Shown here: positions 2,735-58,992 of the stretch, piece by piece
How the letters are laid out: every line of letters begins with the position of its first letter
Numbering within the stretch: the stretch's first letter is position 1
From: Puniceicoccales bacterium
GTDB lineage: Bacteria; Verrucomicrobiota; Verrucomicrobiia; Opitutales; UBA9783
Assembly: GCA_031258545.1 (NCBI GenBank)
Contig: JAIRMU010000015.1
Location: 12,761-76,760, forward strand
Direction of reading: 5' to 3'
DNA: 64,000 bases
Translations under genes and position numbers: made by a program
The notes under the pieces: generated by a model
What the model was told of the DNA's origin: nothing
The model's database searches: none
The model's input: only the letters and a program-made list of their open reading frames with translations

Positions 2735-3562
2735 TTAAAATTTTCTACACTGCTCAAGCCACTTCTTTTCTTCCACAGAAAGTGACCCCATCCCTTCTTC
2801 GTGTAATTTCCGTAAAATATCAAAGGGAATAAGCTGAACACGATTACTTTCCGTTGCATCGTCTTCTATGTGCACCTGATAATTTGTTTTAAATGGAATT
2901 TTTTGCTTCTTTTTTTCACGGTAAAATTCGAAATGCCGCTGCACTAGGCAGTACGTAAAACCGCACAGCATGCCCCCTAAATGCGCAGAATTTGCAACGG
3001 AAGAATTATTTTGGAGTTCATACAATACACCGTTGATCACTTCGTACCACCAAGTAAAGTAGATAAGCCATTTGGCTTTTATCTGTACCGGAAAGACAAA
3101 AAAAACAAGCAACGACAGGGATTTCTCGGGATACATGTGACAAAAATAAGTCAACAGGGCCATGATACCCGCCGAAGCTCCCATTAAACAATGCGCACCA
3201 TGTGCATGTGCGGACAACCAACACAAACCACCTCCCACGATGCCACAAAAGTATAAAATTAATAGGGATTTCAAGGTTAGTTCATAAATTAACAAAAAAC
3301 GACTTAGGAAATAAAGCATCAAGCCGTTGAACAAAAAATGGAAAAAATCTGCATGTAAAAAAGAATAAGAGAACAGCATCCAAAATTTACCTTTCACCAG
3401 GCCTGGAAAAGAAAGGGAAAATTGATTTTCAATCCAATGGCTATTGAACCAAATATTAAGGATTTGCATGCAAACAAACACCCCACCGTAAATGCCTATT
3501 AATTTTTTTATAAAGGCATCTCGAGGCTGGTAATTAACAGCACGAAAAAACGAATGTTGCAT
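2735..3562 (-). CDS. Rhomboid-family intramembrane serine protease
   Basis: Multiple TM segments; HADFFHFLFN, catalytic GASAG and AHLGG motifs. Confidence 0.9.
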   Translation of the reverse strand: MQHSFFRAVNYQPRDAFIKKLIGIYGGVFVCMQILNIWFNSHWIENQFSLSFPGLVKGKFWMLFSYSFLHADFFHFLFNGLMLYFLSRFLLIYELTLKSLLILYFCGIVGGGLCWLSAHAHGAHCLMGASAGIMALLTYFCHMYPEKSLSLLVFFVFPVQIKAKWLIYFTWWYEVINGVLYELQNNSSVANSAHLGGMLCGFTYCLVQRHFEFYREKKKQKIPFKTNYQVHIEDDATESNRVQLIPFDILRKLHEEGMGSLSVEEKKWLEQCRKF

Positions 3563-3726
3563 GGGATATGTTTATATTTTTCTTATCCCAACGGCAAGCT
3601 TTAACCATTTTTTTTATAAATACATAAATTTTAAGTTTTAAAACCATGCGCAAATAGTTTTTCACATTTTTGTGTTGAAGAAATTCTTTTATATTTTACA
3701 TTTACTCGCACGATTTATAGAAATTT

Positions 3727-8050: not shown

Positions 8051-8866
8051 CTAACGTTGTAAAAACGCAGACAGCCTTTTCCTCAATTTTGCAATCACTT
8101 CAGAATGAATTTGGCAGATGCGTGATTCGCTTAATTGGAAAACCTTTGCAATTTCCGATAAGCGTAAGTTTTCGACGTAATAAAGACTCAACAATTGTTG
8201 CGAAAATCTTGGCAATTCTTCTAAACATTTTCTTAATATTTGCCACATTTCTTTTTTCTCAAAAATTTCTCGACCATTATCTTGGCTTACATCGGCCAGG
8301 ACTTCTTGTAGAGGGTAATTGTCATCTTCATCACCACCGTGAACAATGTCTAGTGGAACATACACGATGGGTTTAGCATATTGCTTAATACGTTCACCAT
8401 AAGTTCTATCTACGTGTAAATAATTGCAAATTTCTTCGTTCGACAAAGGTCGTCCAAATTTTTGCTCCAATTGTACAACTTTATATTGAAAATTTTTTAC
8501 TTTTAACCTTAACCCTCTCGGCAACCAATCCAACCGTCTCAATTCGTCCAACAATGCCCCTTTAATACGAATAGAAGCATAAGAACCAAAAGAACATCTT
8601 GCTTCCCTTTTAAAGGTTTGCGTAGCAGAAATTAATCCCAATAATCCGACGGTATATATATTTTCTCTATCCATTGTTGTCGAACAATGGAGCAACACCT
8701 TTCCAACCATTGATTTCAATAAAGGCAAATAGCTCATTACAAGGCCCCAATCGGGTTCCATTAATCCCATTTGTGTGTAAACTTTTTGCAGCGGTTTACG
8801 CTTTTGAGGATCTTTATATAAAACATTCATTGACTTTTTATTACCTTCTTCAAATTTTTTGAACAT
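8051..8866 (-). CDS. RNA polymerase sigma factor, FliA/WhiG (sigma-28) family
   Basis: FGSYASIRIKGALLDELRRLDWLPRGLR (region 2) and LSLYYVENLRLSEIAKVFQLSESRICQIHS (region 4) match FliA-type sigma factors. Confidence 0.9.
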   Translation of the reverse strand: MFKKFEEGNKKSMNVLYKDPQKRKPLQKVYTQMGLMEPDWGLVMSYLPLLKSMVGKVLLHCSTTMDRENIYTVGLLGLISATQTFKREARCSFGSYASIRIKGALLDELRRLDWLPRGLRLKVKNFQYKVVQLEQKFGRPLSNEEICNYLHVDRTYGERIKQYAKPIVYVPLDIVHGGDEDDNYPLQEVLADVSQDNGREIFEKKEMWQILRKCLEELPRFSQQLLSLYYVENLRLSEIAKVFQLSESRICQIHSEVIAKLRKRLSAFLQR

Positions 8867-20107: not shown

Positions 20108-20380
20108 GTGGGACAGTCGGTTATTATAGACATAGCAAGTAAGGTAATGATGCTTGTGTTGATTTTGTCATTACCTTCCATTCTATTGGCAACCATTGTT
20201 GGGCTAGGGGTCAGTTTACTGCAAGCGCTTACGCAAGTCCAAGAACAAACTCTAAGTTTTGCGGTGCGATTGATTTGCATTACCCTTGTTCTGTTATTTT
20301 CGGCCCATTGGATTGGCAACGAACTTATAAAATATATAGAATCTATTTTTATCCAAATTCCGAGAATTACGGGTAAATAA
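20108..20380 (+). CDS. sctS: T3SS export apparatus SctS (EscS/YscS; FliQ homolog)
   Basis: LSLPSILLATIVGLGVSLLQALTQVQEQTLSFAVRL; first gene of an S-T-U cluster. Confidence 0.92.
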   Translation: MGQSVIIDIASKVMMLVLILSLPSILLATIVGLGVSLLQALTQVQEQTLSFAVRLICITLVLLFSAHWIGNELIKYIESIFIQIPRITGK

Positions 20381-21180
20381 TGAACCCATTGCACGATCTT
20401 CTGCCGATTAAAGACATTTTATTGTGCGCACTCATCTGCTGTACCCGCATGTTAGCTTTTTGTTCCACTTCCGTATTCTTTTCGTCACAATTCTTAACGG
20501 GTACGGGACGCAGGGCACTCATAGTTGCCTTATCCCTCATTCTTGTTCCCTTACTTCTTCCAAGCAGTTTAGAACATGCAAAAGCAGATGTATTAGATTG
20601 CTTAGGGTATATACTTAAAGAATCTATTCTGGGCATCATTTTGGGCTTGTTGAGTAATTTTATATTCTATGTGGCGCAAGGTGTAGGATTCGTCATCGAC
20701 ACGCAACGCGGGGCTTCTATGGCAAGTATGTTTGACCCCCTAAGTAATTCTCAAACGAGTCCTCTGGGCGACTTTTTAATGAAATTTACACTTATTCTGG
20801 CTTTGCTCAGCGGTGCCTTCTTAAAAATTATGGAAATGGTTTACGTAAGTTACTTAACATTTCCCATATTTAGTCCTTTGCCTCCATTGGAGCATTGGTT
20901 TCCAAATTTCTTTTTAACGGCTTTCGGGGATGATCTTTTCGCTACGCTCGCACTCCTCGGTGGCCCCGTGTTATTTATCCTATTTTTAGCAGAATTTGGG
21001 CTTGGCATGGTCACACGATTTGCGCCTCAACTCAACGTATTTTTTCTTGCGATGCCCATTAAAAGTGCCCTGGCCATGTTCTTTTTCATTTTGTATTTAA
21101 CCCACCTGGGAGAATATTTTGTAAATAATTTTGAACTGCACAATTTGGCTCAACGTTTCCTAAACGCACTGCGGCATTGA
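20380..21180 (+). CDS. sctT: T3SS export apparatus SctT (EscT/YscT; FliR homolog)
   Basis: KESILGIILG, GFVIDTQRGA, TSPLG, EFGLGMVTRFAPQLNVFFLAMPIKS. Confidence 0.92.
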   Translation: MNPLHDLLPIKDILLCALICCTRMLAFCSTSVFFSSQFLTGTGRRALIVALSLILVPLLLPSSLEHAKADVLDCLGYILKESILGIILGLLSNFIFYVAQGVGFVIDTQRGASMASMFDPLSNSQTSPLGDFLMKFTLILALLSGAFLKIMEMVYVSYLTFPIFSPLPPLEHWFPNFFLTAFGDDLFATLALLGGPVLFILFLAEFGLGMVTRFAPQLNVFFLAMPIKSALAMFFFILYLTHLGEYFVNNFELHNLAQRFLNALRH

Positions 21181-21184
21181 CATC

Positions 21185-22273
21185 ATGAGCGAAAAAACAG
21201 AGCAACCTACGCCTAAAAAAATTCGTGATGCAAGGAAAAAAGGTCAAGTTCCCAACAGCAAAGATGTAACGTCTACGGCACTCCTGATTGTTATCTTCAC
21301 TTATCTTGGATTATCGCGTGTTACCATTTTACAAACGCTGATGGATTTAATTGTCGCCCCATGCCAATTTTTTACACAACCCTTTGAAGACGCTTTTAAA
21401 GGTATGCTATGGGTTTGCTTCAAGGTTGGCCTTAAAGTGGTTCTTCCGTTAGTTTTGCTCGTGTTTATCACAGGTGTTGCGGCAAACGTATTGCAATTTG
21501 GACTTTTAATGTCCCCCGAAAGCATTATACCAAAATTGGATAAACTTAATCCCGTATCGAAGCTAAAGCAGATGTTTTCCATGAAAAATTTGATCGAATT
21601 TCTTAAATCGGCGGCAAAAATTACTTTTTTGGGAACCTTACTCTACTTTGTCATTCGAAATGTTCTAGATCCCCTCTTAAAAATTCCTTATGCAAGCCTC
21701 AGTAATTTTATAAACATTATGCCAAGTGTCTTAAAAACCTTTGCCTATAACGTCGGGTTTGCCTACATCGTGGTTGCTTTTCTGGATTTCATATTTCAAC
21801 GACACAATCACACCAAACAACTCATGATGTCCAAAGATGAAGTCAAGCGAGAGTACAAGGAAATGGAAGGGGATCCGACGATTAAGGGAAAACGCAAGCA
21901 GCTCCACAGAGAATTGCTACAGGGGGGGCCTGCGCAAAAGACAAAACGAGCTTCCGCACTCGTCACCAATCCTACGCACTATGCAATCGCGCTCTACTAC
22001 GACGAAATCACAGTTCCGTTACCCATTGTTTTGGCCAAAGGAACAGGCTTTCAGGCACAGATAATGAAGAAAGTTGCCATGGATTACGACATCCCCATCA
22101 TGGAAAATGTACCTCTTGCACACGCTTTGTACGACTTGGCGGAAATTGGTCGCTACATTCCTCGTGAACTTATCGAACCCGTGGCCGAAGTTATTCGTTG
22201 GGTACGCGACCAAAAACAACGTACCCAAGAGAGCATTGAAGTTTCTCAAGATCAATGGGATAAAATTTTTTAG
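21185..22273 (+). CDS. sctU: T3SS export apparatus switch protein SctU (EscU/YscU; FlhB homolog)
   Basis: MSEKTEQPTPKKIRDARKKGQV, MSKDEVKREYKEMEGDP, autocleavage motif NPTH. Confidence 0.94.
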   Translation: MSEKTEQPTPKKIRDARKKGQVPNSKDVTSTALLIVIFTYLGLSRVTILQTLMDLIVAPCQFFTQPFEDAFKGMLWVCFKVGLKVVLPLVLLVFITGVAANVLQFGLLMSPESIIPKLDKLNPVSKLKQMFSMKNLIEFLKSAAKITFLGTLLYFVIRNVLDPLLKIPYASLSNFINIMPSVLKTFAYNVGFAYIVVAFLDFIFQRHNHTKQLMMSKDEVKREYKEMEGDPTIKGKRKQLHRELLQGGPAQKTKRASALVTNPTHYAIALYYDEITVPLPIVLAKGTGFQAQIMKKVAMDYDIPIMENVPLAHALYDLAEIGRYIPRELIEPVAEVIRWVRDQKQRTQESIEVSQDQWDKIF

Positions 22274-29098: not shown

Positions 29099-30727
29099 AT
29101 GGCTATCAATGCAACAGGGGTAACACAAGTTACCCATCCGATTACGAGTACACCAGGTGCAAATGATACCGGTAGCGTTACAAAAAATCTAACCTCTACT
29201 GCAGGCGTGCCCCAACAAGACCAAGCAACATCCGCATTATCGGATGCCACAAAGCAAAAACAAAGACAAATTGCCCTAACAAACCAACCCAAAACAGCTG
29301 TGGCACTTAATCTTTTGTTAGGTGAAGTACAGCAAGGAGTAAAGTATAAACCAGTGCAGATCGAAAAAACATTGTTGGAAGACATGCAACAAAATCCTCT
29401 TCGCAACCTTTTAGGTGCTAAAATAACTTTCAATATTGATCCTCAAAATTTACTACAGCAACAAAAAGACAACATAGATCATGATATAGCGTGCGTAGAA
29501 CGATGGCTGTCTGGCATTCCTCATTGTTCGCCCAAGCAACAAGGTAAACTATGTGCCGGACTGGGTGAACGAATAAATGGGTCCCCCTATCAACCTGAAA
29601 TATTGGCACTTCTGAATCAGCATGCTACAAATAACCCACAAATTGCAGCTACTAGAGATGCCTACGCAGGTAAACACAGCGAGCATATTACAGGAGAATT
29701 TTGTCAAAAATTAAGTGCAGTTTTAACAGAACCAACGCAGGAAACGCAGGTCACACCCATGCAGGCCAAACTTGCATTTATCGAGCAATTCAATGGGGCA
29801 CAAAGTTTAGAGAATAAAAGCGCCACCCAAATACGAAATGAACAGGCGGCTATAGAATCTCTATTAAAAAAAGATGATCTTACACCTTCAAATCGCGTAT
29901 TTTTACAACAGTTATCCTTGGCATACGAAATAAAGTTGAACGAAAATAATCCAAAGAAGATGGTAGAACTCGCTTCACAGTTCGCAGAACAAGAAGTACC
30001 ATTCTTGCGACAGATGGTTCAGGTGGCTCAAAATATTAGTCAAACGAACACTATGTCGGAGGCGCAAAAACAAAGAATATTGGATGCCCAAGATATAACT
30101 GATATATCAGCCAGGATATGCGATGCGATGTTCCCTAGAACAATGGAAGCTGTCAAGATGCCGAAGTTCAAAACTAAAGGAGATGCCTACTTAAAAATAT
30201 ATGGTAATCATGTAACGCAAGGAGTTATGCGTTTTAACAGCTTAATGCAAGAGATGGTAAAAAAAACACTAGCATCAGACCCTGAAACGGTAAAACGAGT
30301 AGGTGACGAGCTCAAAGGATATATAAATTTATTCTCATCGAATACAGCTTTATATACAGCCCGTGTCGAAGAAGCCTCTACAAAAGAATTACAATCCTTT
30401 AATACAACAGGCTTAATCAATGCAAACGACGGTAGTTTTGCCGAGTTTGACAAACAGCATTCACTGGACATCTTGAAGGGATTTTCAACAAAAACATTAC
30501 AATCTCTCGTTGAACGTGGTCAAGAACTCAGCAAGCAACCAAAGGCTAACACAACAGAGTTTCGAAAATCATTTGAAGTTGTTTTACGGTATGCACCTCT
30601 TCCGGAAGACCAGCGAGAGAGGCAACAAATGTTTGGGATCTTAACACAAGGTATTCAGTGCTTCCCCCAGAAAATGCAAAAGGAATTAGGCAGCATTTTA
30701 CAGAGTCGGATCACGCCATCTGCCTAA
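29099..30727 (+). CDS. Array gene E1 (542 aa): orphan paralog, candidate T3SS effector
   Basis: S/T/P-rich N-terminus, no Sec signal or TM segment; central/C-terminal module (TQIRNEQAAI...LFSSNTALYTARVEEASTKELQSFNTTGLI) is shared with E5. Confidence 0.75.
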   Translation: MAINATGVTQVTHPITSTPGANDTGSVTKNLTSTAGVPQQDQATSALSDATKQKQRQIALTNQPKTAVALNLLLGEVQQGVKYKPVQIEKTLLEDMQQNPLRNLLGAKITFNIDPQNLLQQQKDNIDHDIACVERWLSGIPHCSPKQQGKLCAGLGERINGSPYQPEILALLNQHATNNPQIAATRDAYAGKHSEHITGEFCQKLSAVLTEPTQETQVTPMQAKLAFIEQFNGAQSLENKSATQIRNEQAAIESLLKKDDLTPSNRVFLQQLSLAYEIKLNENNPKKMVELASQFAEQEVPFLRQMVQVAQNISQTNTMSEAQKQRILDAQDITDISARICDAMFPRTMEAVKMPKFKTKGDAYLKIYGNHVTQGVMRFNSLMQEMVKKTLASDPETVKRVGDELKGYINLFSSNTALYTARVEEASTKELQSFNTTGLINANDGSFAEFDKQHSLDILKGFSTKTLQSLVERGQELSKQPKANTTEFRKSFEVVLRYAPLPEDQRERQQMFGILTQGIQCFPQKMQKELGSILQSRITPSA

Positions 30728-30950
30728 CTTCGCCATGTGTTTAACGATATGCCTGCCTCCGAAAAACGGCTTCGATCGTAAGATGCCCGGCATAATGGGC
30801 ACATGCGGATAATGGCCTCGGAGAAAGTATTTGTCCATCCACAAGACTTTTTCTACTTTGATGGCATCTTCGCGTAAATTAAGAACTTTGTTCACGCACA
30901 AAATGGAAAATGATGCAAAATCGCATCCAAATTCTTGTTCTTTGGTCCAT
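30728..30950 (-). pseudogene. Decayed copy of the 5' part of the fabZ-like gene at 28536-28991
   Basis: Reads VNKVLNLREDAIKVEKVLWMDKYFLRGHYPHVPIMPGIL versus VDKILNLHEDVIEVEKVLRVDEYFFQGHYPHMPIMPGVL; frameshifts on both sides; DNA similarity continues into the promoter region. Confidence 0.88.
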
Positions 30951-31003
30951 GCCTTCCCCCTCTTTCTAGAGCAAATCGACAATAAATTACATCTTTACAT
31001 TTG

Positions 31004-31046
31004 TTGATAAAATTGTCTTGCAAATGATTTAAATTGTCTTTATTAC
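31004..31046 (+). promoter_or_regulatory. Array promoter copy 2 (degenerate -10)
   Basis: TTGATAAAATTGTC-TTGCAA-N17-TATTAC; ATG at 31058. Confidence 0.55.
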
Positions 31047-31057
31047 ATTACCCATAT

Positions 31058-31663
31058 ATGTCTCTACAAGTTAATAACAATTCAAATGTATCACCTGGTG
31101 TATCTGATAGTTCTACTACACCAACCGCAGGAAAAAATGCTGCAGGTCGTAGTATCACATCATCGGATCAACCGATAACAACGGTTGCTAATATGGCTAG
31201 CCAACAAATTCTATCTCAACGACAGCAAGCAGGAATGCGAAGAGTACAAGAGGCAAAAACAGAAAATCTAAATGAGGATATGGCCGCATCCCAAGCGTCA
31301 GCCGCCAAGTACGATAAGAAAAGTGCATTAGGGCAATGGGGCTCGCGGGTGAAAGGAAAACTTGTGGGGACAGGTGATTATGCTGACAAAAAAGCAACCT
31401 TTGCCAAACTGCAGAATGACATTGAATACCATACATTCAAATCTTCGATACCATCACCTAATCATCTAGCAGATCTTAATGCGGATAAAGCTCAGCTAAG
31501 GGAATGGCAAAACGCCGTGTTACAATATTCTCCCAAAGATCAAGCGAAGCTAATGTCCACACTGATGGCGAAGATAAACAGTCCTGAGACTGCACATGGC
31601 CTAAAAGAGACGTTTGCTACATGGCTGCAGACGCCTGAGGTTAAGAATATGAAGTTAAAGTGA
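31058..31663 (+). CDS. Array gene E2 (201 aa from ATG 31058): orphan paralog, candidate T3SS effector
   Basis: N-terminus MSLQVNNNSNVSPGVSDSSTTPTAGKNAAGRSIT; repeat unit WQNAVLQYSPKDQAKLMSTLMAKIN. Confidence 0.72.
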   Translation: MSLQVNNNSNVSPGVSDSSTTPTAGKNAAGRSITSSDQPITTVANMASQQILSQRQQAGMRRVQEAKTENLNEDMAASQASAAKYDKKSALGQWGSRVKGKLVGTGDYADKKATFAKLQNDIEYHTFKSSIPSPNHLADLNADKAQLREWQNAVLQYSPKDQAKLMSTLMAKINSPETAHGLKETFATWLQTPEVKNMKLK

Positions 31664-31742
31664 TAAAAACTTACGACGGGAGGGTTCCTCATTGTCACCC
31701 ACTTTTTAATTTATATCCAAGGCCAAATTCTCTTTACATTCG

Positions 31743-31785
31743 TTGGCCAAATTATCTTGCAAACGTCGTAAAAAGTTTTTAAACT
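31743..31785 (+). promoter_or_regulatory. Array promoter copy 3
   Basis: TTGGCCAAATTATC-TTGCAA-N17-TAAACT; ATG follows after 7 nt. Confidence 0.65.
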
Positions 31786-31792
31786 GGATAAA

Positions 31793-40249: not shown

Positions 40250-41011
40250 ATGCAGCAAACCACCATTGGAGAACGGCTACAGCAAGCGCGCCAGCGTTTG
40301 GGGTTGTCTCTCGAAGACATTGCGGTAACACTCAAAATTCGAAAAGACGTCCTATTAAAATTTGAATCCAATGAGTTCGACGTAAAGTTACCTCCCGTAT
40401 ACCGAAAAGGTTTTTTCAAGGCGTACGTAAAACTTTTGAAACTCAACGTGCCGACGTTATTGGCCGACTACGAAGAAATTGTAGGCGAGATTAATCACGG
40501 TACGGGCTTTTCGTTAGGTCAGCTAAAACTGGATAATCCAAAAAATATCGGCAACGACAATAAGCCGGAAATAACAGAATTAGAACCCGGAGAAAGTTCG
40601 GCGAGGTATGTGCGTCCCATCCCACAATTTGTCCACTTTAGATTGCTCATCATTGGCATTGTTATCCTTTTAATCGTATTTATTGGCGGCCTATACCTGC
40701 GTTGCACCAAAGAACATGCGGCATCCGTTCCCACGACGGCGCAGGATACACTGCCCATCCAGGATACCGCCGCTTCCGAAAGCACCATCGTACTCACCGC
40801 ATTGGATGCGGTACAAGTGTTTGTGCGTCAAGAGTCCGACAGACGACGCCTTTTTGCCGGTACACTCAACAAAAACGAGCATTACACGTTAACCAAATCG
40901 GGCCCCGTTCAAATCTCATACTCGGAAGGTAAATCTTTATTAATCGAACAGGCCAACGGTCTACATATTAAGCCGCAAAAAGAAGGCCGAGGCTGGATCA
41001 GGGTTCCCTAA
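40250..41011 (+). CDS. RodZ-like protein (HTH + TM + periplasmic domain)
   Basis: IGERLQQARQRLGLSLEDIA..LKIR, VYRKGFFKAYVKLLKL, single TM segment, C-terminal beta domain. Confidence 0.82.
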   Translation: MQQTTIGERLQQARQRLGLSLEDIAVTLKIRKDVLLKFESNEFDVKLPPVYRKGFFKAYVKLLKLNVPTLLADYEEIVGEINHGTGFSLGQLKLDNPKNIGNDNKPEITELEPGESSARYVRPIPQFVHFRLLIIGIVILLIVFIGGLYLRCTKEHAASVPTTAQDTLPIQDTAASESTIVLTALDAVQVFVRQESDRRRLFAGTLNKNEHYTLTKSGPVQISYSEGKSLLIEQANGLHIKPQKEGRGWIRVP

Positions 41012-41029
41012 TTCCCATAAAAAATAATT

Positions 41030-41890
41030 ATGCATAAGCCCTTAGCCAAAGGTGTCAGTTGGTTTCTATTGAGTTTAATCATTGGAGTCGGGTTGGACGT
41101 CATACAAAAGTATTTGGGGGGCAACCTGAAAAGCTTCGAAATTACCTTTTACAGATTCCTTTTTGGCGCCATTTCCCTGATGCCATTTCTAGGCATGCGA
41201 TGGATTCGTAGCGGGTTTTCATTAACGCAATATTGGCACATTCACATATTCAGAGGATTTTTATTGTTTTCGGGCATGGTCCTGTGGTGCTACGGTCTCA
41301 CATTGGTTCCCATAAGTACAGCCATTGCACTTAATTATTCCATTCCTCTTTTTACACTTATTCTTTCCATCTTTTTGTTGAAGGAAACCGTTAATAGAGA
41401 TCGATGGCTAACAACGTTTGTTGGTTTTGGAGGTATATGGATTGTACTGAATCCTACGGGCATCAATTTTGATTCAAGGACCCTTTTGTTGATCGTATCC
41501 TCGTTTTTATTCTCGCTCTTGGACGTATTTAACAAAAAATACGTCTGCAAGGAATCGCTCCTAAATATGCTATTTTATACGGCCTTTTTCACCTGCGCTT
41601 TTAGTGCAATTCCAGCATTTTCAGGCGAAATACACACACCTTTTAACCACATAAGCATTTTAATTACACTCGGCATCGGAGCCAATTTAATGTTCTATTG
41701 CCTACTGAAAGCTTTTCAATACATGGACGCTTCTGCCTTGGCACCATTTCGCTATTGCGATTTTCTTGTATCGGCACTTTTTGGATTTTTATTTTTTTCC
41801 GAAAAGCCAACCTTATCCACTTGCCTTGGGTTTCTTGTAATCATGCCTTGCACGTGTTACCTTGCCTACCAAGAAAATAAAAAGAATTAA
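41030..41890 (+). CDS. DMT/EamA-family transporter resembling the Rickettsia S-adenosylmethionine transporter
   Basis: About 10 TM segments; GVSWFLLSL, DVIQKYLG..LKSFEI.F.RF, HIFRGFLLFSGM..WCYGLT, IPLFTLIL, LDVFNKKYV.KES...MLFY, LLKAF...DA.A.APFRY. Confidence 0.8.
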   Translation: MHKPLAKGVSWFLLSLIIGVGLDVIQKYLGGNLKSFEITFYRFLFGAISLMPFLGMRWIRSGFSLTQYWHIHIFRGFLLFSGMVLWCYGLTLVPISTAIALNYSIPLFTLILSIFLLKETVNRDRWLTTFVGFGGIWIVLNPTGINFDSRTLLLIVSSFLFSLLDVFNKKYVCKESLLNMLFYTAFFTCAFSAIPAFSGEIHTPFNHISILITLGIGANLMFYCLLKAFQYMDASALAPFRYCDFLVSALFGFLFFSEKPTLSTCLGFLVIMPCTCYLAYQENKKN

Positions 41891-41927
41891 TCTTGTCTTT
41901 CCAATTTAGCTCCCATAAAAGGTTCCC

Positions 41928-43082
41928 ATGACGATTGAATTTATTTCTTCCGAAGCCGTTGGAGAAGGACATCCCGATAAAGTTGCCGATTACATATCGG
42001 ATAGCATTTTGGATGCTTGCCTCGAGCAGGACAAAAATGCGCATGTCGCCTGCGAGACCTTGGTGAAGTCAAATTGTGTCGTACTTGCAGGGGAAATCAC
42101 AACGCAAGCGCAGGTGGATTACGAACTTGTAACGCGCAACGCCATTCGAGATATCGGCTACACAGACCCTCAAGACCTTTTCAATGCAAACACCGTATTT
42201 ATTCATAATTTATTAACGCCGCAGTCGGGTGAAATCGCAGATGCGGTCGTTAAATCAGACCGCGGCATCGGGGCCGGTGATCAAGGATTTTTCTTCGGTT
42301 ACGCGTGCGATGAAACACCGGAATACCTACCCGCTTCTTACCTTTTGGCACAAAAACTCTGCCAAATGCTGGCCACCTACAGAAAAACCAAGCGCGTGTC
42401 TTGGATGAAACCGGATTGTAAGGCTCTTGTCACAATGCGTTACGAAAATGGATCTCCCTTAGACGTGCAAAATGTTGTATTGGCAATTCAACACGCCGCT
42501 TCTATAAGTTTAAAAGAAATCTATGAATTTTGTAAAGAACAATTGATTCCAGAAATTATTCCCGGGCATTGGTTATCGGATAATACCATGTACTATATTA
42601 ATACCAGTGGTAGCTTTATTCACGGAGGACCTTCCGCCGACTCGGGCCTTACGGGCAGGAAAATTATAGTAGATACTTACGGAGGTTGGGCGCATCACGG
42701 AGGGGGTGCATTTTCCGGAAAAGATCCTTCCAAAGTGGATCGTTCCGGTGCTTACTTCTGCCGTTGGGTTGCAAAAAATATCGTTGCAGCCGAACTGGCA
42801 AAACGAGTGGAGGTTCGACTGGCGTACGCCATCGGTGGCACTAAACCCATTCACTACGATTTGACAACCTACGGAACAGAAAATTGTGATTTGCATCGTT
42901 TGCGCGAAGCGATTGCAAAAATATTCGATGCAAGGCCATCTGCTATCTTGGAAACGCTTAATCTTCGCAATCCCATTTACAAATCAACGACACAATTTGG
43001 ACATTTTACAAAAACAAATTTGCCCTGGGAACAAACAAATCGTGTTCAAGAATTGCTAGACCTCTGCCCGTTAGGAGTATAG
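41928..43082 (+). CDS. metK: S-adenosylmethionine synthetase
   Basis: SEAVGEGHPDKVAD, GAGDQG, GGPSADSGLTGRKIIVDTYGG, GGGAFSGKDPSKVDRSGAY. Confidence 0.97.
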   Translation: MTIEFISSEAVGEGHPDKVADYISDSILDACLEQDKNAHVACETLVKSNCVVLAGEITTQAQVDYELVTRNAIRDIGYTDPQDLFNANTVFIHNLLTPQSGEIADAVVKSDRGIGAGDQGFFFGYACDETPEYLPASYLLAQKLCQMLATYRKTKRVSWMKPDCKALVTMRYENGSPLDVQNVVLAIQHAASISLKEIYEFCKEQLIPEIIPGHWLSDNTMYYINTSGSFIHGGPSADSGLTGRKIIVDTYGGWAHHGGGAFSGKDPSKVDRSGAYFCRWVAKNIVAAELAKRVEVRLAYAIGGTKPIHYDLTTYGTENCDLHRLREAIAKIFDARPSAILETLNLRNPIYKSTTQFGHFTKTNLPWEQTNRVQELLDLCPLGV

Positions 43083-43443: not shown

Positions 43444-45315
43444 TTACCGGGAGACCTGCTTTAAAAGCTTTCTTAAAGCAACCATGAGTATTTGGATATC
43501 GGAAGGGTTAACACCGCTAATGCGACTCGCTTGCCCCAAATTTTGGGGCCTTAGGTGTATCAGTTTTTGTAGGCTTTCGTTTCGTAAGCCGTATACCGTT
43601 TTATAATCAAAAGTCTTGGGGATTTGAATGTCCTCTAACCATTGACACCTTGCTATCTGCTTTGATTCACGCTCTAAGTAGCCTTTGTAGCAAACGCGAT
43701 AAAAAACTTCCTCGCGAATGGGAGCAATTTGCTCTGAAAATGCACGCGGTAATTTAGGCAATTCAAAATGTTCTTCACAGTAATGACGCCTTATCTGATC
43801 CCCTAACTTTTGTCCCTCTTCGCAACATGCTTCCTCTAATTGAGTAACCCAATAGGCTATGCACGTACGCTTATCTTGAATAGCTTTTAGCCGAGTCTCG
43901 CTCAAACAGTTCCATCGCTTTGCCTTTTCATACAAACGCAGCTCCGCGCTCGCATGATTCAAAAGTAAACGATGTTCCGCCCGCCCGGTAAACATTCTAT
44001 AAGGTTCTTGCGTACCCTTGGTCACCAAATCATCCACCAAAACCCCAATGTAGCTTTCGTGCCGAGATAAAATGCAGGCAGGTTCTTTTAAAACTTTTGC
44101 AGCCGCGTTAATTCCAGCCAACAACCCCTGTCCGGCCGCTTCCTCATAACCCGAAGTTCCATTAATTTGCCCTGCCAAAAATAGTCCTTCCCATTGTTTA
44201 CTTTCCAACGTTGCGTACAAATGTGTGGGATCCGAAAAAGCGTATTCAACCGCGTATGCTGGACGCGTTAAAATGGCATTTTCAAGACCCGGAATCGTTT
44301 TCAGCATTGCCCTCTGGATGTCCACGGGTAAACTGGTAGACAGCCCATTGATGTACCATTCATCCGTGCATATCCCTTCCGGCTCCAGAAATAATCGATG
44401 ACGTTCTCTATCGTTAAAGCGCACGCATTTATCTTCAATACTCGGACAATATCGAGGACCTTGACCATGAATATTGCCGGCAAACAAAGCGGAACGTTCC
44501 AAATTATCCAAAATAATTTTGTGCGTATGGGGATTCGTATACGTCATCCAACAAGATACGGTACGTGTCCCAGGCTTCCAGGACGTAGATCCGTAAGTAT
44601 TGGTAGCATTACACGTCTCTGGACGAGTATCGTAAAAGGCAAAAAAACAAGGATCCGCATCGCTGGGTTGTTCTTCGCAGGCAGAAAAATCAATACTGCG
44701 ACCTAAAATACGCGCAGGTGTCCCTGTTTTCAATAATCCCAAAGAAAATCCCAACGATTTGAGGGAATCCAAGAGAGCGTAGCTACCAAAATCTCCCAAA
44801 CGGCCTCCCGGTATTTTTTGATGTCCAATATGCAACGTACCGCCCAAAAACGTACCCGTTGCCAATACCACCGTTGTCGCAGTAAATGCAAGTCCCAATT
44901 GGGTACACACACCGCAGATGCGATTTGCGCATGTTAACAAACTAACCACTTCATCTTGAAACAAAACAATATGGGGATGCTTCTCCAAACGGTATTTCAT
45001 GCTCCATTGATAACATTTTTTATCGCATTGGGCACGCGGAGCTTGCACGGCCATACCTTTGGAACGATTTAATATGCGAAAATGAATGGCCGTTTCGTCG
45101 GCATTTATTCCCATAATGCCACCCAACGCGTCGATCTCCCTGACAATATGGCCTTTGGCCAAGCCTCCAATCGCGGGATTGCAGCTCATTTGGGCAATCG
45201 TGTCCAAATTTCCCGAAATGAGTAATACGGATACACCCTTTTGCGCTGCAATCCATGCCGCCTCGCAGCCGGCATGCCCGCCACCACACACAATGACATC
45301 AAAATCCGTTTTCAT
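43444..45315 (-). CDS. mnmG: tRNA uridine-5-carboxymethylaminomethyl modification enzyme MnmG/GidA (start moved to ATG 45315, ATGA overlap with mnmE)
   Basis: [64 protein letters not shown]. Confidence 0.97.
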
Positions 45316-46676
45316 TTCCCAATGCAAAAGCGAGAAAAAATCCGATCCAGTATTTGCTCATAGTCTACTCTCCCCACAATGTGCTCCATGGCACGTAAAG
45401 CAGCTTTTAATTCTGCGGCCAAACAATCTTCAAACCCTTGCGTTTGAAATAAATGGATCGCTTTTTTTATCGCAATTTGCGCTTCCATCAAACTTTCGGC
45501 GTGACGCTCGTTGACCATAAATGCGGCCTGGGAAAAATCTTCATAACGTTGGTCCAAAAAACTCTTTATGAAGGTTTGAACTTTATTGAACGCATCAACA
45601 TCCTCTTTAAGACTTATGGAACAATGCGGATATCGTTTTAGATAGGAAGAGAAATTAACGTCCGTGTACGGCAAATCAGCTTTATTGAGCAATGTTAAGG
45701 TTTTCGACGAATCCAACAATTGGATAAAATTCTGTTCAAAATGCGGCATTGGCTGAGATTGATCCAATACCCACAAGATGAGATCTGCTTTTTCCAATTG
45801 TTCCAAGCTTCTTTGAATCCCCTCATGCTCTAACGCATCGCAAGCAGCGTGAATACCGGCCGTATCCACAAGACGTAATCCGTAAGATTCCAGCTGAACA
45901 TACTCCGCAATGAAATCCCTTGTGGTTCCCGGCATAGGACTAACAATGGCCCTATCATGGCCCAACAAAGTATTTAACAAAGTACTTTTCCCCACATTGG
46001 GCGCTCCAACAATAACGGTTGTAATGCCATTTTGTAAGCTTCGATAATGCGCATGAGTGTGCACAAGCTTATCAATTTCTTCCGATAAGACATGCAACGC
46101 ATCGCAATAGGCCCGTCGATTGGCTTCCGGCAAATCTTCTTCGGGAAAATCCAAATAGGCTTCGATCCAGGCAATCTGTTCCATTAAAATGGTGACCCAC
46201 CGATCTATTTTTTTGCTCAAGGACCCCAATAATTGGTTACGAGCCATCACAAGCGCTTGTTGCGACTTGGCGTGTATTAGGTCGGCAACGGCTTCCGCTT
46301 GGCAGAGATCTAAAACACCATTCGTAAAAGCTCTGCGCGTAAATTCTCCAGGATTTGCCTGCCGGCACCCGCGCAGAATGCAATCTCTAATCACCTGCTT
46401 CAGGATAAGCGGATTTCCATGACAAGCAATTTCCAAAGTCGCTTCACCCGTAAAGGATGCATGAGGTGCAAAGTAGACAAACGTCACGTCATCCAACAAT
46501 AACCCTTCTAGGGTTTGATAAGATCCCACGTAATTGTGTCTTGGAACGATAGCCGGCCGCCTAAAAATGGATTTTGTCAAATCGAGACAATCGGGACCAC
46601 TCAAACGTACAACGCCTATGCCCGATTCGCCCCAGGGAGTGGATAAGGCCACAATGGTATCTTCCTGCATACTCAT
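45312..46676 (-). CDS. mnmE: tRNA modification GTPase MnmE/TrmE (start moved to ATG 46676 or 46670)
   Basis: [56 protein letters not shown]. Confidence 0.97.
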
Positions 46677-46733: not shown

Positions 46734-47513
46734 CTAGACAAGTCCCCGTGTCGATGGCGTATGTACGAAATGAAAGATCAATTTTGCAATGACTTGAAAT
46801 TGAGCTATGACCGAGTCGTTGGCAATAGCCTCCATCGCTTGAGAACGATTCAAATGCGATCCGTACATGTATTTAAAAATCTTTTTTACGACAGCGCACT
46901 CTTGTTCCGAAAAACCGTTACGTAACATACCTATCCTATTAAATGTTTTTGCGGTAGCCGGCACCCCACAGGCCAGCATAAAGGGTGGAATATCTTTTTT
47001 TAAAAAAGAATGTCCTCCCAACATGGCGTAATCTCCAACCCTACAAAATTGATGAATGGATGCATTTCCACCTATATTGGTATGATTACCGATACGGACG
47101 TGTCCACCCATCGCAACTTGAGCACTGATGATAACATGATCCTTTACCGTACAATCGTGGCCAATGTGTGCAAATGCCAAAACATAGTTGTGGCTCCCAA
47201 GGGTGGTTGCTTGACCGTCCTGCGTAGACGTATGAATGGACACGTACTCCCTAAAAACATTGTCATCGCCAATTTTCAAATGACAAATGCCACCTTTGTG
47301 CTTCAAATCGTGAGTTTTAGCACCCAAATAGCAGTAGGGATACACGCAATTATTTTGACCCATTTCGGTATACCCATCGATGGTCGCATGATGTTCAACA
47401 ACGCAATGCTTACCCAAAATAACGTGCGGACCTATGAAGGCGTAGGGCCCCACCACGACATCATCTTGCAATTGAGCCTCGGGATGAACAATGGCTGTTG
47501 GATGGATTTGCAT
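46734..47513 (-). CDS. lpxA: Acyl-ACP--UDP-N-acetylglucosamine O-acyltransferase
   Basis: IHPTAIVHPEA hexapeptide repeats, FREYVSIH, AHIGHDC, IHQFCRVG. Confidence 0.95.
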   Translation of the reverse strand: MQIHPTAIVHPEAQLQDDVVVGPYAFIGPHVILGKHCVVEHHATIDGYTEMGQNNCVYPYCYLGAKTHDLKHKGGICHLKIGDDNVFREYVSIHTSTQDGQATTLGSHNYVLAFAHIGHDCTVKDHVIISAQVAMGGHVRIGNHTNIGGNASIHQFCRVGDYAMLGGHSFLKKDIPPFMLACGVPATAKTFNRIGMLRNGFSEQECAVVKKIFKYMYGSHLNRSQAMEAIANDSVIAQFQVIAKLIFHFVHTPSTRGLV

Positions 47514-47519
47514 CGCACA

Positions 47520-48827
47520 TTAGGATTGATTTTGGGAAATCATAAACATTAACTCAGCCGAAGATACTACCTTATCATTTACAAAACACTGGCCTTCGGC
47601 AATTCCAATCCGATTGTTCTTGATTTTTAGCAATTGTACCTCGATCAACATTTGATCTCCCGGCTGAACAACGTTACGAAATTTCACTTTATCGGCACTC
47701 ATAAGAAATGCTTTTGCATTTTTATTTTCTTGGCCCAATTGATATCCCATCAAAATACCTGCCGCTTGCGCCATCGCTTCCAGCTGAAGTACTCCAGGCA
47801 TGATGGGATTTCCGGGGAAATGTCCCACAAAATAAGGTTCATTTGCGGTCACATTTTTAATGGCGCGCAGCGCATCTTCTTCAATACTCACGACGCGATC
47901 CACCAGAATAAAGGGATAACGGTGCGGTAAATGCCTTAAAATACCTTGAATATCTAAAACTGCATCCGTATAAACGGGAAATTCACTTAAATTTTCTTGA
48001 TAAAATTGTTCCAGGATGGCCTTACACAGTTTTACATTGAGAGCGTGCCCCGTTTTAATGGCAATAACATGGCCTTTTATGGGATGTCCCAGGAGTGCCA
48101 AATCACCTAAAAGATCTAGGATTTTGTGCCTCACGAATTCATCCGCAAAACGCAAAGGCCCATTCGAAAGAATTTTATCTCCCTTAATGACAATGGCACA
48201 ATCGAGACTTCCGCCTTTTATTTTACCAAGTTTCAATAAGGGTTCAACGTCCTCGTATAAGGTAAATGTACGCGCATCTGCAATTTCGTGCACGTATGTC
48301 TCGTGGTCAATCGTTAAAGTTAAATGCTGTACGTGTACGCCTCGGTTATCCGCAGATGTGCACGTTATTTGAAACGTTTCATTGGGTAGAATCAAAATGG
48401 AACGGTCATCCTGAACGAAAGAAATAGGTTCCGTAATTTCCACAAACGTCTTTTCTGATGGCTGCAGTTCAAATCCAACCTCCTGTAACTTTTCAACCCA
48501 AAACTTTGCAGAACCATCCAAAATGGGCACTTCGCTGCCCTCGACTTCAATCCGTGCATTGTCTATCTCCGATCCATACAACGCACTCATCAAATGCTCC
48601 ACGGTATGTATTTTAACCCCATCCTTGGATAGTGTAGTTCCACGTACCACATCGTCGACGTACTGAACAAGCGCTGGAATTTCACACGGATGCCCACGTA
48701 CGTCCGTTCTCTGAAAGACAATGCCCGTATTTTCCGGAGCTGGTTTCACGGTAACACGTACCGACTGCCCCGTATGCAACCCTTGCCCGGAAACTTCAAA
48801 TTGTCTTTTCGGCGTCTTCTGCTGCAT
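47520..48827 (-). CDS. lpxC: Bifunctional LpxC-FabZ fusion (start moved to ATG 48827)
   Basis: LpxC: GQGLHTG, TVEHLMSAL, PILDGS, ARTF, EFVRHKILD. FabZ: LPHRYPFILVD, GHFPGNPIMPGVLQLEAMAQ. Confidence 0.95.
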   Translation of the reverse strand: MQQKTPKRQFEVSGQGLHTGQSVRVTVKPAPENTGIVFQRTDVRGHPCEIPALVQYVDDVVRGTTLSKDGVKIHTVEHLMSALYGSEIDNARIEVEGSEVPILDGSAKFWVEKLQEVGFELQPSEKTFVEITEPISFVQDDRSILILPNETFQITCTSADNRGVHVQHLTLTIDHETYVHEIADARTFTLYEDVEPLLKLGKIKGGSLDCAIVIKGDKILSNGPLRFADEFVRHKILDLLGDLALLGHPIKGHVIAIKTGHALNVKLCKAILEQFYQENLSEFPVYTDAVLDIQGILRHLPHRYPFILVDRVVSIEEDALRAIKNVTANEPYFVGHFPGNPIMPGVLQLEAMAQAAGILMGYQLGQENKNAKAFLMSADKVKFRNVVQPGDQMLIEVQLLKIKNNRIGIAEGQCFVNDKVVSSAELMFMISQNQS

Positions 48828-49276
48828 GGCAGTATTTAGTACACACTCGCCGGTATTTGTCAAACGATCTGTCAACGGAAATTCACGGGTACGCCTTGAA
48901 ATCTAGAGGTCACCGTACTTGATTTGATGCAATGACAATGGGATCAAAAATTTGGAATCCAAAGCAAAAAAATCATTGAAAACTCAAGAAAAATTTTCTC
49001 GTGTCTCATGAATCGGAGAAAAAACGGCGGCTATTACTTTAGCGGACATGCCTAACGCAAATTTGTTCGAAAATGCGAAACAATTTTCCTCCAAAGATTT
49101 TTGTTAAAAAACATATATCCGGCCTTTGGTAGAACATCCAGATCAGAATTATTTAGAGATTTTACGAGAATTTTGGTGTTTTCTAAACTGCCAGCAAGGT
49201 AATCCAGCTCTCCGTAGATGAAATGTTTTTTTATCTGCAACGCATTCAACTGTTCCCAAATATCGGGAATCTAATT

Positions 49277-56548: not shown

Positions 56549-56893
56549 ATGGCGGCTTTAACAACGGAACAAACAAATTTTTTATATCTGCTCGCTTACA
56601 TGTATATGCAGCAGTCAAAATACACGCAAGCCTTGCAATTATTTCGAATTCTGCGTCTGCATACGGCGGAAAACATGCAAATAGCACTCACGTTGGCCTT
56701 TTGCTTGTACAAAGCGAGTCGTTTAGAAGAAGCGACCAAAGTTTTAAATTCTCTGGATACAAATAAACTCTCCACCCGTCAAAAAACTGCCTATTACTTT
56801 ATTAGCAGCAAGGTTTTGTGGGATCTAAAAAAAGTTACCGAATCGCGGGAAATGTTACACAGCTATTTAAAATGTAGAAAACTAAATTCATGA
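56549..56893 (+). CDS. YscY/SctY-like small TPR protein
   Basis: 114 aa, helical/TPR-like; LTTEQTNFLYLLAYMYMQQSKYTQA resembles the YscY N-terminus as recalled; 4-bp overlap with sctV, the yscY position in Ysc loci. Confidence 0.65.
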   Translation: MAALTTEQTNFLYLLAYMYMQQSKYTQALQLFRILRLHTAENMQIALTLAFCLYKASRLEEATKVLNSLDTNKLSTRQKTAYYFISSKVLWDLKKVTESREMLHSYLKCRKLNS

Positions 56894-58992
56894 GCTTTGT
56901 AGGATCCATAGAAAAAACCGTTGCCAAAGTTTCACGTTTCAATGACGTTTTATTGGCCGTCTTGGTGGTCATGATCATTGCTTTGATGATCGTTCCCGTT
57001 CCAAGTTACATCCTAGATGGCCTCATAGCACTCAATTTCACCATCTCCATCATCCTCCTCATGATGGCACTCTACATCCCCAACGTGCTTGCGTTTTCCA
57101 CATTCCCCAGCATGTTATTGTTCACAACGCTCTTTCGATTGGCCCTCAGCATCACAACCACGCGCATGATTTTGCTGTACGCCGATGCCGGTGAAATTAT
57201 TTTCACGTTCGGGCAATTTGTTGTGGGAGGTAATTTCGTTGTTGGAGCCGTTATCTTTTTGATACTTTTAATCGTCCAATTTTTGGTCATCACCAAAGGT
57301 GCCGAACGTGTTGCCGAAGTGGCAGCCAGGTTTACTTTGGATGCGATGCCGGGAAAACAAATGAGCATCGATGCCGATATGCGGGCCGGTACCATTGATA
57401 TGGATGAAGCTAAGCGCCGACGCAGCGATCTTGAACGAGAAAATCAACTTTACGGCGCCATGGATGGTGCCATGAAATTCGTCAAAGGAGATGCCATTGC
57501 GGGACTCATTATTACCGCCGTCGACATCATTGCCGGACTGATTATTGGGGTTACCCAAAAAGGGATGGAATTGCAAAAAGCGCTTACGACGTATTCCATT
57601 TTAACCATTGGAGATGGTCTCGTTTCCCAAATTCCCGCACTGCTGATTTCTATTACGGCCGGTATTATCGTAACAAAGGTAGGAGCCGCCGATGGAACTA
57701 TTTTGGGGCGCGACATCGGCAAACAAGTCCTCGGACAACCCAAAGCGCTGCTCATAGGTGGCTTCATGGTCGTTGGAATGATGCTCATGCCCGGCTTTCC
57801 CAAAGTTCCTTTCCTGATTTTGGCATCCATGGTCCTTGTTGTGGGGTACACGCTCGTTAAAACTCGCGGACAAACGGGAAAACCAAAACGTCAACATTCT
57901 CCCATGTCTCCCGCAGCCAATCCCCCACGTAAAGCTCCGGAAGTTACCAACGAGTCCGAAGACTCCGGAGATGAATTTTCGGTCACCATCCCACTCATAT
58001 TGGATGTAGCGCGTTCCGTTGAAGAAACCATCGAGCCCGACGTTTTGAATGAGCAACTTATTCAAATTCGTAAGGCTTTGTATCACGATCTAGGCGTTCC
58101 GTTTCCCGGGATTCACCTGAGATTCAACGAAAGTTTGGAAGATAATTGTTACAGAATTTTGCTGAGTGAAGTTCCCATTAGCCAAGGTAAATTGATGGGG
58201 ACGCACGTTTTGGTGCGCGAATCAAAGGAAAACCTTGACATCTTGGGGATTAATATTGTTGAAGCCGAAAACTTTTTACCCAATATCCCGACTTTGTGGG
58301 CAGCCGCCTCCGACATAGAAATATTAAATACGGCCAACGTTGCCTACATGCGTACGCCACAAATTCTCACCTACCATTTATCCTTCATTTTAAAAAAATA
58401 TGCGGGTGAATTTTTGGGCATTCAGGAATGTAAGTTTTTATTGGAAAATATGGAACAGGATTTTCCTGAAATTGTACGCGAAGTACAGCGCGTTTTACCC
58501 ATACAAAAAATTACGGACATTTTCCAAAGACTAGTGCAGGAAGAAATTTCCATTAGAAATTTAAAACTTATTTTACAGTGTTTAATCGACTGGGGACAAA
58601 AAGAAAAAGAGCCCGTTTTATTGGCTGACTACGTACGATCCAATTTACGCCGTTACATCAGTTATAAATTCAGCGAAGGCCGCAACGTCCTTTCCGTTTA
58701 CTTACTGGATCCACAAGTTGAAGAAGTCGTCCGCAAAGCGGTTAGACAAACTTCTGCAGGAAGTTATCTTGCACTTGACCCGCCGACCGCCAAAAAGCTG
58801 GTCAAAGCCATTAAAGATGAAGTGGGCGAAATCCATCTTTTATCCCACCGTCCGGTTCTTCTTACATCCATGGATATCCGACGCTACATTCGAAAATTGA
58901 TTGAATTAGAAATCTATGATTTACCCGTTTTGTCACACCAAGAACTTACGGAAGAAATAACCATTCGCCCGCTCGGTAGGGTTCACATATAG
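56890..58992 (+). CDS. sctV: T3SS export gate protein SctV (LcrD/EscV; FlhA homolog)
   Basis: FPSMLLFTTLFRLALSITTTR, GAERVAEVAARFTLDAMPGKQMSIDAD, GAMDGAMKFVKGDAIAG, IGDGLVSQIPAL, EISIRNL, LPVLSHQEL. Confidence 0.95.
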   Translation: MSFVGSIEKTVAKVSRFNDVLLAVLVVMIIALMIVPVPSYILDGLIALNFTISIILLMMALYIPNVLAFSTFPSMLLFTTLFRLALSITTTRMILLYADAGEIIFTFGQFVVGGNFVVGAVIFLILLIVQFLVITKGAERVAEVAARFTLDAMPGKQMSIDADMRAGTIDMDEAKRRRSDLERENQLYGAMDGAMKFVKGDAIAGLIITAVDIIAGLIIGVTQKGMELQKALTTYSILTIGDGLVSQIPALLISITAGIIVTKVGAADGTILGRDIGKQVLGQPKALLIGGFMVVGMMLMPGFPKVPFLILASMVLVVGYTLVKTRGQTGKPKRQHSPMSPAANPPRKAPEVTNESEDSGDEFSVTIPLILDVARSVEETIEPDVLNEQLIQIRKALYHDLGVPFPGIHLRFNESLEDNCYRILLSEVPISQGKLMGTHVLVRESKENLDILGINIVEAENFLPNIPTLWAAASDIEILNTANVAYMRTPQILTYHLSFILKKYAGEFLGIQECKFLLENMEQDFPEIVREVQRVLPIQKITDIFQRLVQEEISIRNLKLILQCLIDWGQKEKEPVLLADYVRSNLRRYISYKFSEGRNVLSVYLLDPQVEEVVRKAVRQTSAGSYLALDPPTAKKLVKAIKDEVGEIHLLSHRPVLLTSMDIRRYIRKLIELEIYDLPVLSHQELTEEITIRPLGRVHI

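Follow-up and report, generated by a model that had tools for sequence, protein, structure and literature searches.

Why would a bacterium keep a gene for a putative importer of S-adenosylmethionine (SAM) directly beside an intact gene for the enzyme that makes SAM? The question is raised by a stretch of 64,000 nucleotides from a Puniceicoccales bacterium (NCBI GenBank assembly GCA_031258545.1, contig JAIRMU010000015.1, positions 12,761 to 76,760 of the forward strand), which in its whole length is referred to here as the window. It contains a gene of the DMT/EamA transporter family, here called sam, and next to it metK, the gene for methionine adenosyltransferase (SAM synthetase). An earlier note, made from the sequence alone, had placed an EamA/DMT gene 37 bp upstream of a co-oriented metK, and the list of open reading frames (ORFs) and the Pfam matches agree with that description. 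We estimate a probability of about 0.65 that the carrier takes up SAM, can release S-adenosylhomocysteine (SAH) and forms a single unit of SAM supply with MetK through co-expression.

By its sequence, the transporter is of the type of the Rickettsia SAM carrier (the RP076 family of Sam-type carriers, KEGG K15270) and not of another EamA subfamily. The protein has two Pfam EamA repeats (E 2e-33). In BLASTP, it is 43% identical over 280 aa to a Rickettsia-endosymbiont Sam orthologue (E 1e-79). It is 42% identical to the proteins of Trichorickettsia and Rickettsia vulgarisii, as against 15–17% for YddG, EamA, RhtA and YedA of E. coli. These four E. coli proteins also served as the comparison in a neighbour-joining tree of 64 sequences, a distance method run with 100 bootstraps. 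All Sam-type sequences, the window protein included, fell into one clade with 100% bootstrap, at a branch length of 1.37 from the E. coli paralogues, and the proteins of gut Opitutales and Puniceicoccales formed a subclade with 92% support. Clustering with other EamA subfamilies, as far as the four E. coli paralogues represent them, was not seen in this tree. The clade and the 43% identity thus uphold the view of the earlier note that the transporter is of the Rickettsia type. The five motif blocks on which that view had relied are all present in the translation, and in BLASTP they line up with blocks that are conserved in an actual orthologue from Rickettsia. Five charged residues (R42, R75, E119, K169 and E175) are invariant in 23 diverse family members, and three more (D23, D165 and R241) are conserved in at least 90%. 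The AlphaFold2 model of the protein has a predicted local distance difference test score (pLDDT) of 87.6 and 11 DSSP helix elements, which can be read as about 10 transmembrane helices. A Foldseek search with this model returned the DMT fold of antiporters, with SLC35B1 at a template modelling (TM) score of 0.77 and also 5i20, which we take to be the YddG structure; a sequence search of the PDB with the transporter gave no match. The family assignment as such is already known, since in automated annotation the closest homologue already bears the name of a SAM uptake transporter. This orthologue, from a Puniceicoccales metagenome-assembled genome (MAG), is 92% identical, and it is called a DMT family transporter by NCBI and an “S-adenosylmethionine uptake transporter” by JGI.

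The second gene of the pair is intact. All three Pfam S-AdoMet synthetase domains are present in MetK, the score against the NCBIfam metK equivalog TIGR01034 is 494.6 bits with a cut-off of 309.4, and the protein can be aligned over its full length to two structures of MetK from E. coli, 7r2w and 1fug (393 bits). None of the motifs HPDK, GAGDQG, DxGLTGRKIIVDTYGG and GGGAFSGKDPSKVDRS is missing, so the claim that metK keeps its catalytic motifs stands on the family score, the full-length alignment and the motifs themselves. Both sam and metK are under strong purifying selection in the window lineage. The ratio of nonsynonymous to synonymous substitution rates (dN/dS) is 0.04–0.06 for metK against close relatives (dS 0.4–0.6) and 0.06–0.09 for sam (dS 0.4–1.1 across both genes), and metK is full-length in every case seen.

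The linkage of the two genes was surveyed by tblastn of the window MetK against all fetched sam loci and by context look-ups that started from clade-type MetK proteins. In addition to the window, the four closest MAGs (L003–L006), four other gut Opitutales (L008–L011) and a horse-faeces MAG (L014) have metK as the next gene after sam, and the look-ups added two linked cases (L088–L090 and L093). The flanking genes differ between these loci. The window lineage has the order oppA-rodZ-sam-metK followed by a convergent mnmG; L014 and L088 have dprA-MBL-SDF-sam-metK-sigmaECF; in L008, dprA and MBL are found about 5 kb upstream of the pair; L093 has an EPSP synthase gene some way before sam-metK-pilT; and the flanks of L009–L011 carry no oppA, rodZ or mnmG genes. 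The junction between sam and metK is always short: a 4-bp ATGA overlap in L008, L014, L088–L090 and L093, 1 bp in L009–L011, and 37–38 bp in the window lineage with its four closest MAGs. Outside the Opitutales, metK was found within 6 kb of sam at none of more than 60 Sam loci, a set that held no Rickettsia-genus genome. The pairing therefore recurs within Opitutales neighbourhoods and is unseen at the loci surveyed outside the clade, and the recurrence in different surroundings, with overlapping or 1-bp junctions, bears out what had been proposed as an apparent operon.

Because the two genes are adjacent, their junctions always short, both under purifying selection and with no terminator between them, sam-metK behaves as a selected two-gene unit that is probably translationally coupled. 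Co-transcription is predicted from the common strand, the short spacer, the lack of a terminator and the linkage kept across rearrangements. Terminator-like sites and sigma-70 promoters were looked for in the spacer, and none was found, as the counts of the scan were at chance level. In a search of the whole window with Rfam at the gathering threshold, only three tRNAs were recovered and no riboswitch in or before sam-metK; a SAM riboswitch or another RNA element upstream of the pair is ruled out on this result. The 10-mer TCCCATAAAA has exactly three copies in the window, two of which (41013-41022 and 41911-41920, + strand) stop 7 nt short of the start codons of sam and metK, respectively, and it occurs at none of 45 other gene starts examined there. 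The exact sequence is found in the window only, and the close MAGs keep it loosely, as an A-rich stretch. It was set aside as a regulatory site because of this loose conservation in relatives.

Could metK instead be a leftover in a lineage that lives on imported SAM, with the adjacency an accident of synteny? The earlier note had considered such a pre-loss stage, and in most Rickettsia species with Sam, metK is indeed pseudogenised (PMC5615194). Five loci have sam with no metK downstream (L007, L012, L013, L015 and L074), and four of them speak for this alternative. In one of these, L074 (human-gut Verrucomicrobia MGYG-HGUT-04418), the synteny of oppA-rodZ-sam and, further on, mnmG-mnmE is otherwise kept, and a trmB-like methyltransferase gene on the opposite strand (6861-7451, -) fills the position that metK has in the window. 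In the fifth locus, L015, the apparent loss is not one, since its assembly (GCA_964508215.1) has metK on a different contig (locus L087). A relaxed tblastn search (E up to 10) for a metK remnant adjoining sam in the five loci gave noise only, and no sam remnant adjoins the unlinked metK of L087, L091 and L094. Against the leftover stand the low dN/dS and the full length of metK, and the pair has also survived in several rearranged neighbourhoods, where the stop codon of sam overlaps the metK start. We thus consider this alternative very improbable. The notion of a pre-loss stage finds no support for the lineage either, given the low dN/dS of both genes and the persistence of the pair across a clade in which divergence has brought Sam down to about 55% identity. 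Since the linkage recurs across neighbourhoods, the junctions are tight and dN/dS is low, sam-metK is a maintained two-gene module and not a metK in the course of being lost.

In the reading as a SAM-supply unit, the product of sam would be a secondary transporter of about 10 transmembrane helices, from the DMT subfamily of the Rickettsiales Sam carrier. It would be transcribed together with a functional metK as a conserved “SAM supply” module of a gut-associated clade of Opitutales and Puniceicoccales. The carrier would import SAM from its environment, which is probably a eukaryotic host cell; both the substrates and the direction of transport are predicted. It could also swap internal SAH for external SAM, as the tested carriers of Chlamydia and Amoebophilus suggest by analogy. 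If it does, the module would explain how methylation goes on in reduced genomes that have no SAH-degrading enzymes. MetK would make SAM from methionine and ATP when import falls short, and co-expression would put both routes to SAM under one control.

Several points weigh against this reading. RP076 itself was outside the tree set, in which the orthologues of a Rickettsia endosymbiont, Tisiphia and Trichorickettsia stood in for it, and the deep nodes within the Sam clade lack resolution (bootstrap below 25). EamA proteins of the Rhodobacteraceae Thalassovita, Thalassobius and Paracoccus, which are free-living bacteria, join the Sam clade on a long branch. With this group inside it, the clade may be mixed in function and could hold other specificities. 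NCBIfam has no Sam-specific model, and the best match there, TIGR00950, is a generic “carboxylate/amino acid/amine transporter” model and lies far below its cut-off. Among DMT transporters, 43% identity is no guarantee of a shared substrate, and we infer SAM transport by the window protein, or by any verrucomicrobial member, from homology. Moreover, metK is unlinked from sam in L087 (the same assembly as L015), L091 and L094, and the gene content with regard to SAH hydrolase, methylthioadenosine (MTA)/SAH nucleosidase and methionine synthesis covers the 64 kb of the window only.

Part of this would suit a carrier that moves another MetK-linked compound, either by importing methionine or by exporting another amino-acid-like metabolite. 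The substrates of DMT/EamA transporters are diverse and hard to predict, the NCBIfam match is to a generic model below its cut-off, and an operon with metK would equally suit a methionine importer. Nevertheless, another substrate seems unlikely to us. The protein lies within the clade of Rickettsiaceae Sam orthologues at 42–43% identity and keeps the invariant charged residues, whereas its identity to the E. coli amino-acid exporters is only 15–17%.

The comparison with known SAM carriers helps to place the window protein. The carrier of Amoebophilus asiaticus, studied by Haferkamp et al. in 2013, is reportedly a SAM/SAH counter-exchanger, and A. asiaticus itself is said, in the title of that work, to have no methylation cycle. 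The A. asiaticus carrier therefore replaces synthesis, to judge from this title, while the window lineage keeps metK, presumably co-expressed. Both carriers probably belong to the same DMT subfamily, as Cytophagales MAG proteins of 36–37% identity fall into the Sam clade. The relationship to the Rickettsiaceae is closer. Like Sam of R. prowazekii (RP076, also called EamA), the window protein has two EamA repeats, a length of about 290 aa and the same motif blocks, and with the orthologues of Rickettsia, Tisiphia and Trichorickettsia it shares 42–43% identity and a well-supported clade. The host phylum here is Verrucomicrobiota (Opitutales/Puniceicoccales), and the tight linkage to metK is a further difference, unseen at the alphaproteobacterial Sam loci surveyed (again with no Rickettsia-genus genome among them). 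The coexistence of the carrier with an active MetK is shared with R. prowazekii (PMC5615194). Across Rickettsia, the carrier is highly conserved; R. prowazekii has an active metK, and in most of the other species the gene is a pseudogene (PMC5615194). According to the passages that PMC3104491 devotes to it, the Rickettsia carrier (RP076) imports SAM in an energy-dependent manner and is inhibited by SAH.

The best-documented mechanism is that of SAMHT (CTL843) of Chlamydia trachomatis, a SAM/SAH antiporter with proton-motive-force-dependent SAM uptake and energy-independent SAM/SAH exchange (PMC3104491). It shares the DMT/DME family and the two EamA repeats with the window protein. Because CTL843 and RP076 are only about 20% identical and no relationship between them is supported in trees (PMC3104491), CTL843 is a functional analogue from another subfamily; a metK operon is unreported for it. 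The window protein is not expected in the CTL843 family, given its 43% identity to Rickettsia Sam. Homologues of CTL843 show 34–38% identity even among Chlamydia-like organisms, and Parachlamydia and Waddlia retain metK, sahH and a CTL843 homologue (PMC3104491). E. coli YddG, EamA, RhtA and YedA have the Pfam family and the overall fold in common with the window protein and are split off by the 100%-supported long branch. E. coli exporters of the EamA family export amino acids and related metabolites.

A synthetase and a transporter in one operon is the usual layout of an export pathway, and the tested SAM carriers of the superfamily can run both ways (CTL843; PMC3104491). The module might accordingly be thought to provide a host or partner with SAM made by MetK. 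There is hardly any chance that this is so, in our estimate: no known member of the family is a net SAM exporter, and eukaryotic hosts produce their own SAM. The other carriers of the family belong to metabolic parasites or reduced symbionts, and SAM export to the host finds no support. To our knowledge, Rickettsia and Amoebophilus are the sources of the SAM carriers of this DMT type that have been tested, with the analogous carrier in Chlamydia. No paper was found on a sam-metK operon or on Sam-type carriers of Verrucomicrobiota, and the operon arrangement is previously undescribed. With the verrucomicrobial branch, the Sam family would reach into gut-associated Opitutales. That the linkage to an intact metK is tight and conserved suggests that SAM import and synthesis can be kept jointly under selection, which argues against import simply replacing synthesis.

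How far the family extends was followed in a homologue scan with one genome per species, in which the scanned loci were biased to proteins carrying [DE]ASALAPFR or GAN..YCLL. Four Puniceicoccales MAGs, with 87–92% identity to the window protein, form the top group. At 55–71% follow Opitutales and Verrucomicrobia MAGs, several of which bear titles that refer to horse faeces, the Hadza human gut or a genome of a human-gut catalogue. A few Opitutia and Verrucomicrobia MAGs reach 33–48%, and in the same range are Paracaedibacter, Holosporaceae, Jidaibacter, Rickettsiales, Caedibacter, Caedimonas, Finniella, Odyssella and Cytophagales. A further search, which started from the protein of a Rickettsiaceae MAG, recovered named Rickettsia, Tisiphia and Trichorickettsia proteins. 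The nearest carriers of the family outside Verrucomicrobiota are mostly endosymbionts of protists or arthropods. The window lineage (Puniceicoccales/Opitutales) is known from MAGs only, several of them from human and horse gut, and the closest MAGs, with isolate names such as Cc175_bin121, are presumably termite-gut bins.

Some members of the family were found in unexpected places. Homologues of 370–500 aa (P0063 and its neighbours P0059, P0061, P0064, P0065 and P0067) include a protein of the green alga Micromonas. Its identity to the window protein is 42–43%, and it is extended at the N-terminus by about 90 aa that are possibly a targeting peptide. Because of this homologue, Sam-type carriers may exist in eukaryotic algae. 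In MAGs labelled Janthinobacterium lividum, Patescibacteria and Rhizobiaceae (L035, L040 and L044), Sam nests among Caedimonas, Paracaedibacteraceae and Holosporales, which suggests mis-binned contigs or a recent transfer. A second, divergent Sam-family protein of a Puniceicoccales MAG (P0091, 37% identity) branches off basally in the Sam clade and is possibly a paralogue within the same group of organisms.

The remaining features of the window bear on its gene neighbourhood and on the lifestyle of the organism, and their coordinates are collected in the table together with those of the pair.

Table. Position of the sam-metK pair, its neighbours and genes of the lifestyle context in the window
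Feature	Position	Strand	Remarks
sam, Sam-family (Rickettsia-type) DMT/EamA transporter	41030-41890	+	286 aa, ATG start, about 10 predicted transmembrane helices
sam-metK spacer	41891-41927	+	37 bp, no terminator; holds TCCCATAAAA (41911-41920), whose end is 7 nt upstream of the metK ATG
metK, methionine adenosyltransferase (SAM synthetase), intact	41928-43082	+	384 aa, ATG start
RodZ-like HTH_25 membrane protein gene	40250-41011	+	Pfam HTH_25, weak NCBIfam RodZ matches; ends 18 bp before sam
OppA-like family-5 solute-binding protein gene, co-oriented context	38578-40185	+	Pfam SBP_bac_5; NCBIfam OppA 358 bits, below cut-off
mnmG (gidA), convergent	43444-45327	-	Pfam GIDA and SAM_GIDA_C found on the positional orthologue in L001
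SctT, non-flagellar type III secretion	20380-21180	+	NCBIfam 176 bits, cut-off 163
SctU, non-flagellar type III secretion	21185-22273	+	NCBIfam 419 bits, cut-off 358
SctV, non-flagellar type III secretion	56890-58992	+	NCBIfam 899 bits, cut-off 692
Sigma-28 (FliA/WhiG-type) factor	8051-8866	-	

The string of + strand genes around the pair ends at mnmG, which is 90–93% identical in L003–L006. The synteny of the OppA-like and RodZ-like genes is kept in L003–L006 and L074, and the RodZ-like gene is absent from the remaining sam-metK neighbourhoods. It probably shares a transcription unit with sam in the window lineage and stands outside the conserved pair.

The Sct genes, which encode proteins of the export apparatus, lie in two separate places of the window, and flagellar models score below their cut-offs there. 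The layout of the type III secretion genes is reminiscent of Chlamydiae. The window also encodes a PilT ATPase. Directly upstream of oppA, six tandem ORFs on the + strand (29099-38494) encode proteins of 542, 209, 318, 499, 814 and 447 aa for which no Pfam match was found. They are mutually paralogous, with up to 64% identity, and have N-termini rich in Ser, Thr and Gln. Their region has a strong AT skew (0.16–0.22), and three of the six are preceded by the exact motif TTGTTCTTAAACTAAA (at 32917, 34551 and 37128). The last one shares only 31–38% identity with the ORFs at the corresponding position in those MAGs in which the flanking genes reach about 90%. The six ORFs look like fast-evolving secreted or effector-like proteins. 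In a relative, Verrucomicrobia bacterium UBA1183 (L012), an NTT-type NTP/NDP exchange transporter gene (615-2135, +; TIGR00769 433 bits, cut-off 387) is found 3.8 kb upstream of sam. Further downstream in that locus, several ORFs lie on the opposite strand, and the N-terminus of one of them resembles, by eye, a type III secretion or flagellar component.

Since the type III secretion genes, the orphan array and the NTT gene of the relative resemble features of Chlamydiae, a lifestyle that is intracellular or depends on host cells is plausible from the gene content. This makes the little-studied gut clade a candidate for host-cell dependence. We would guess that the window lineage is a member of the “Nucleococcus cluster”. 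Termite-gut Verrucomicrobia of this cluster live inside protists and have genomes of about 1 Mb (PMC8204192).

A more far-reaching proposal is tentative and in our eyes rather doubtful. In it, sam-metK would be a module of SAM/SAH homeostasis that swaps toxic SAH for SAM of the host, and it would mark a hitherto unrecognised, Chlamydia-like, host-dependent clade of gut Opitutales in which synthesis and import are uncoupled stepwise. This clade of animal guts, including those of humans and horses, would combine type III secretion, the NTT nucleotide exchanger and SAM scavenging. The module would have been broken repeatedly, with metK unlinked and possibly lost and with a nucleosidase-like gene at the position of sam in one genome, and the broken modules would represent several stages of transport replacing biosynthesis. 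The genome with the nucleosidase-like gene is that of L091, a locus in synteny with L088 and L014 that has no sam upstream of metK. A divergent MTA/SAH-nucleosidase-like gene (2999-3682, -; NF004079 97.6 bits, cut-off 169) takes the position of sam there and is also present in L092. It may provide an alternative route of SAH disposal.

Two further genes lie beyond mnmG in the window. A single ORF of 451 aa (47520-48875, -) joins LpxC and a FabA/FabZ-like dehydratase domain, and it is followed by a gene for an LpxA-like acyltransferase (46734-47513).

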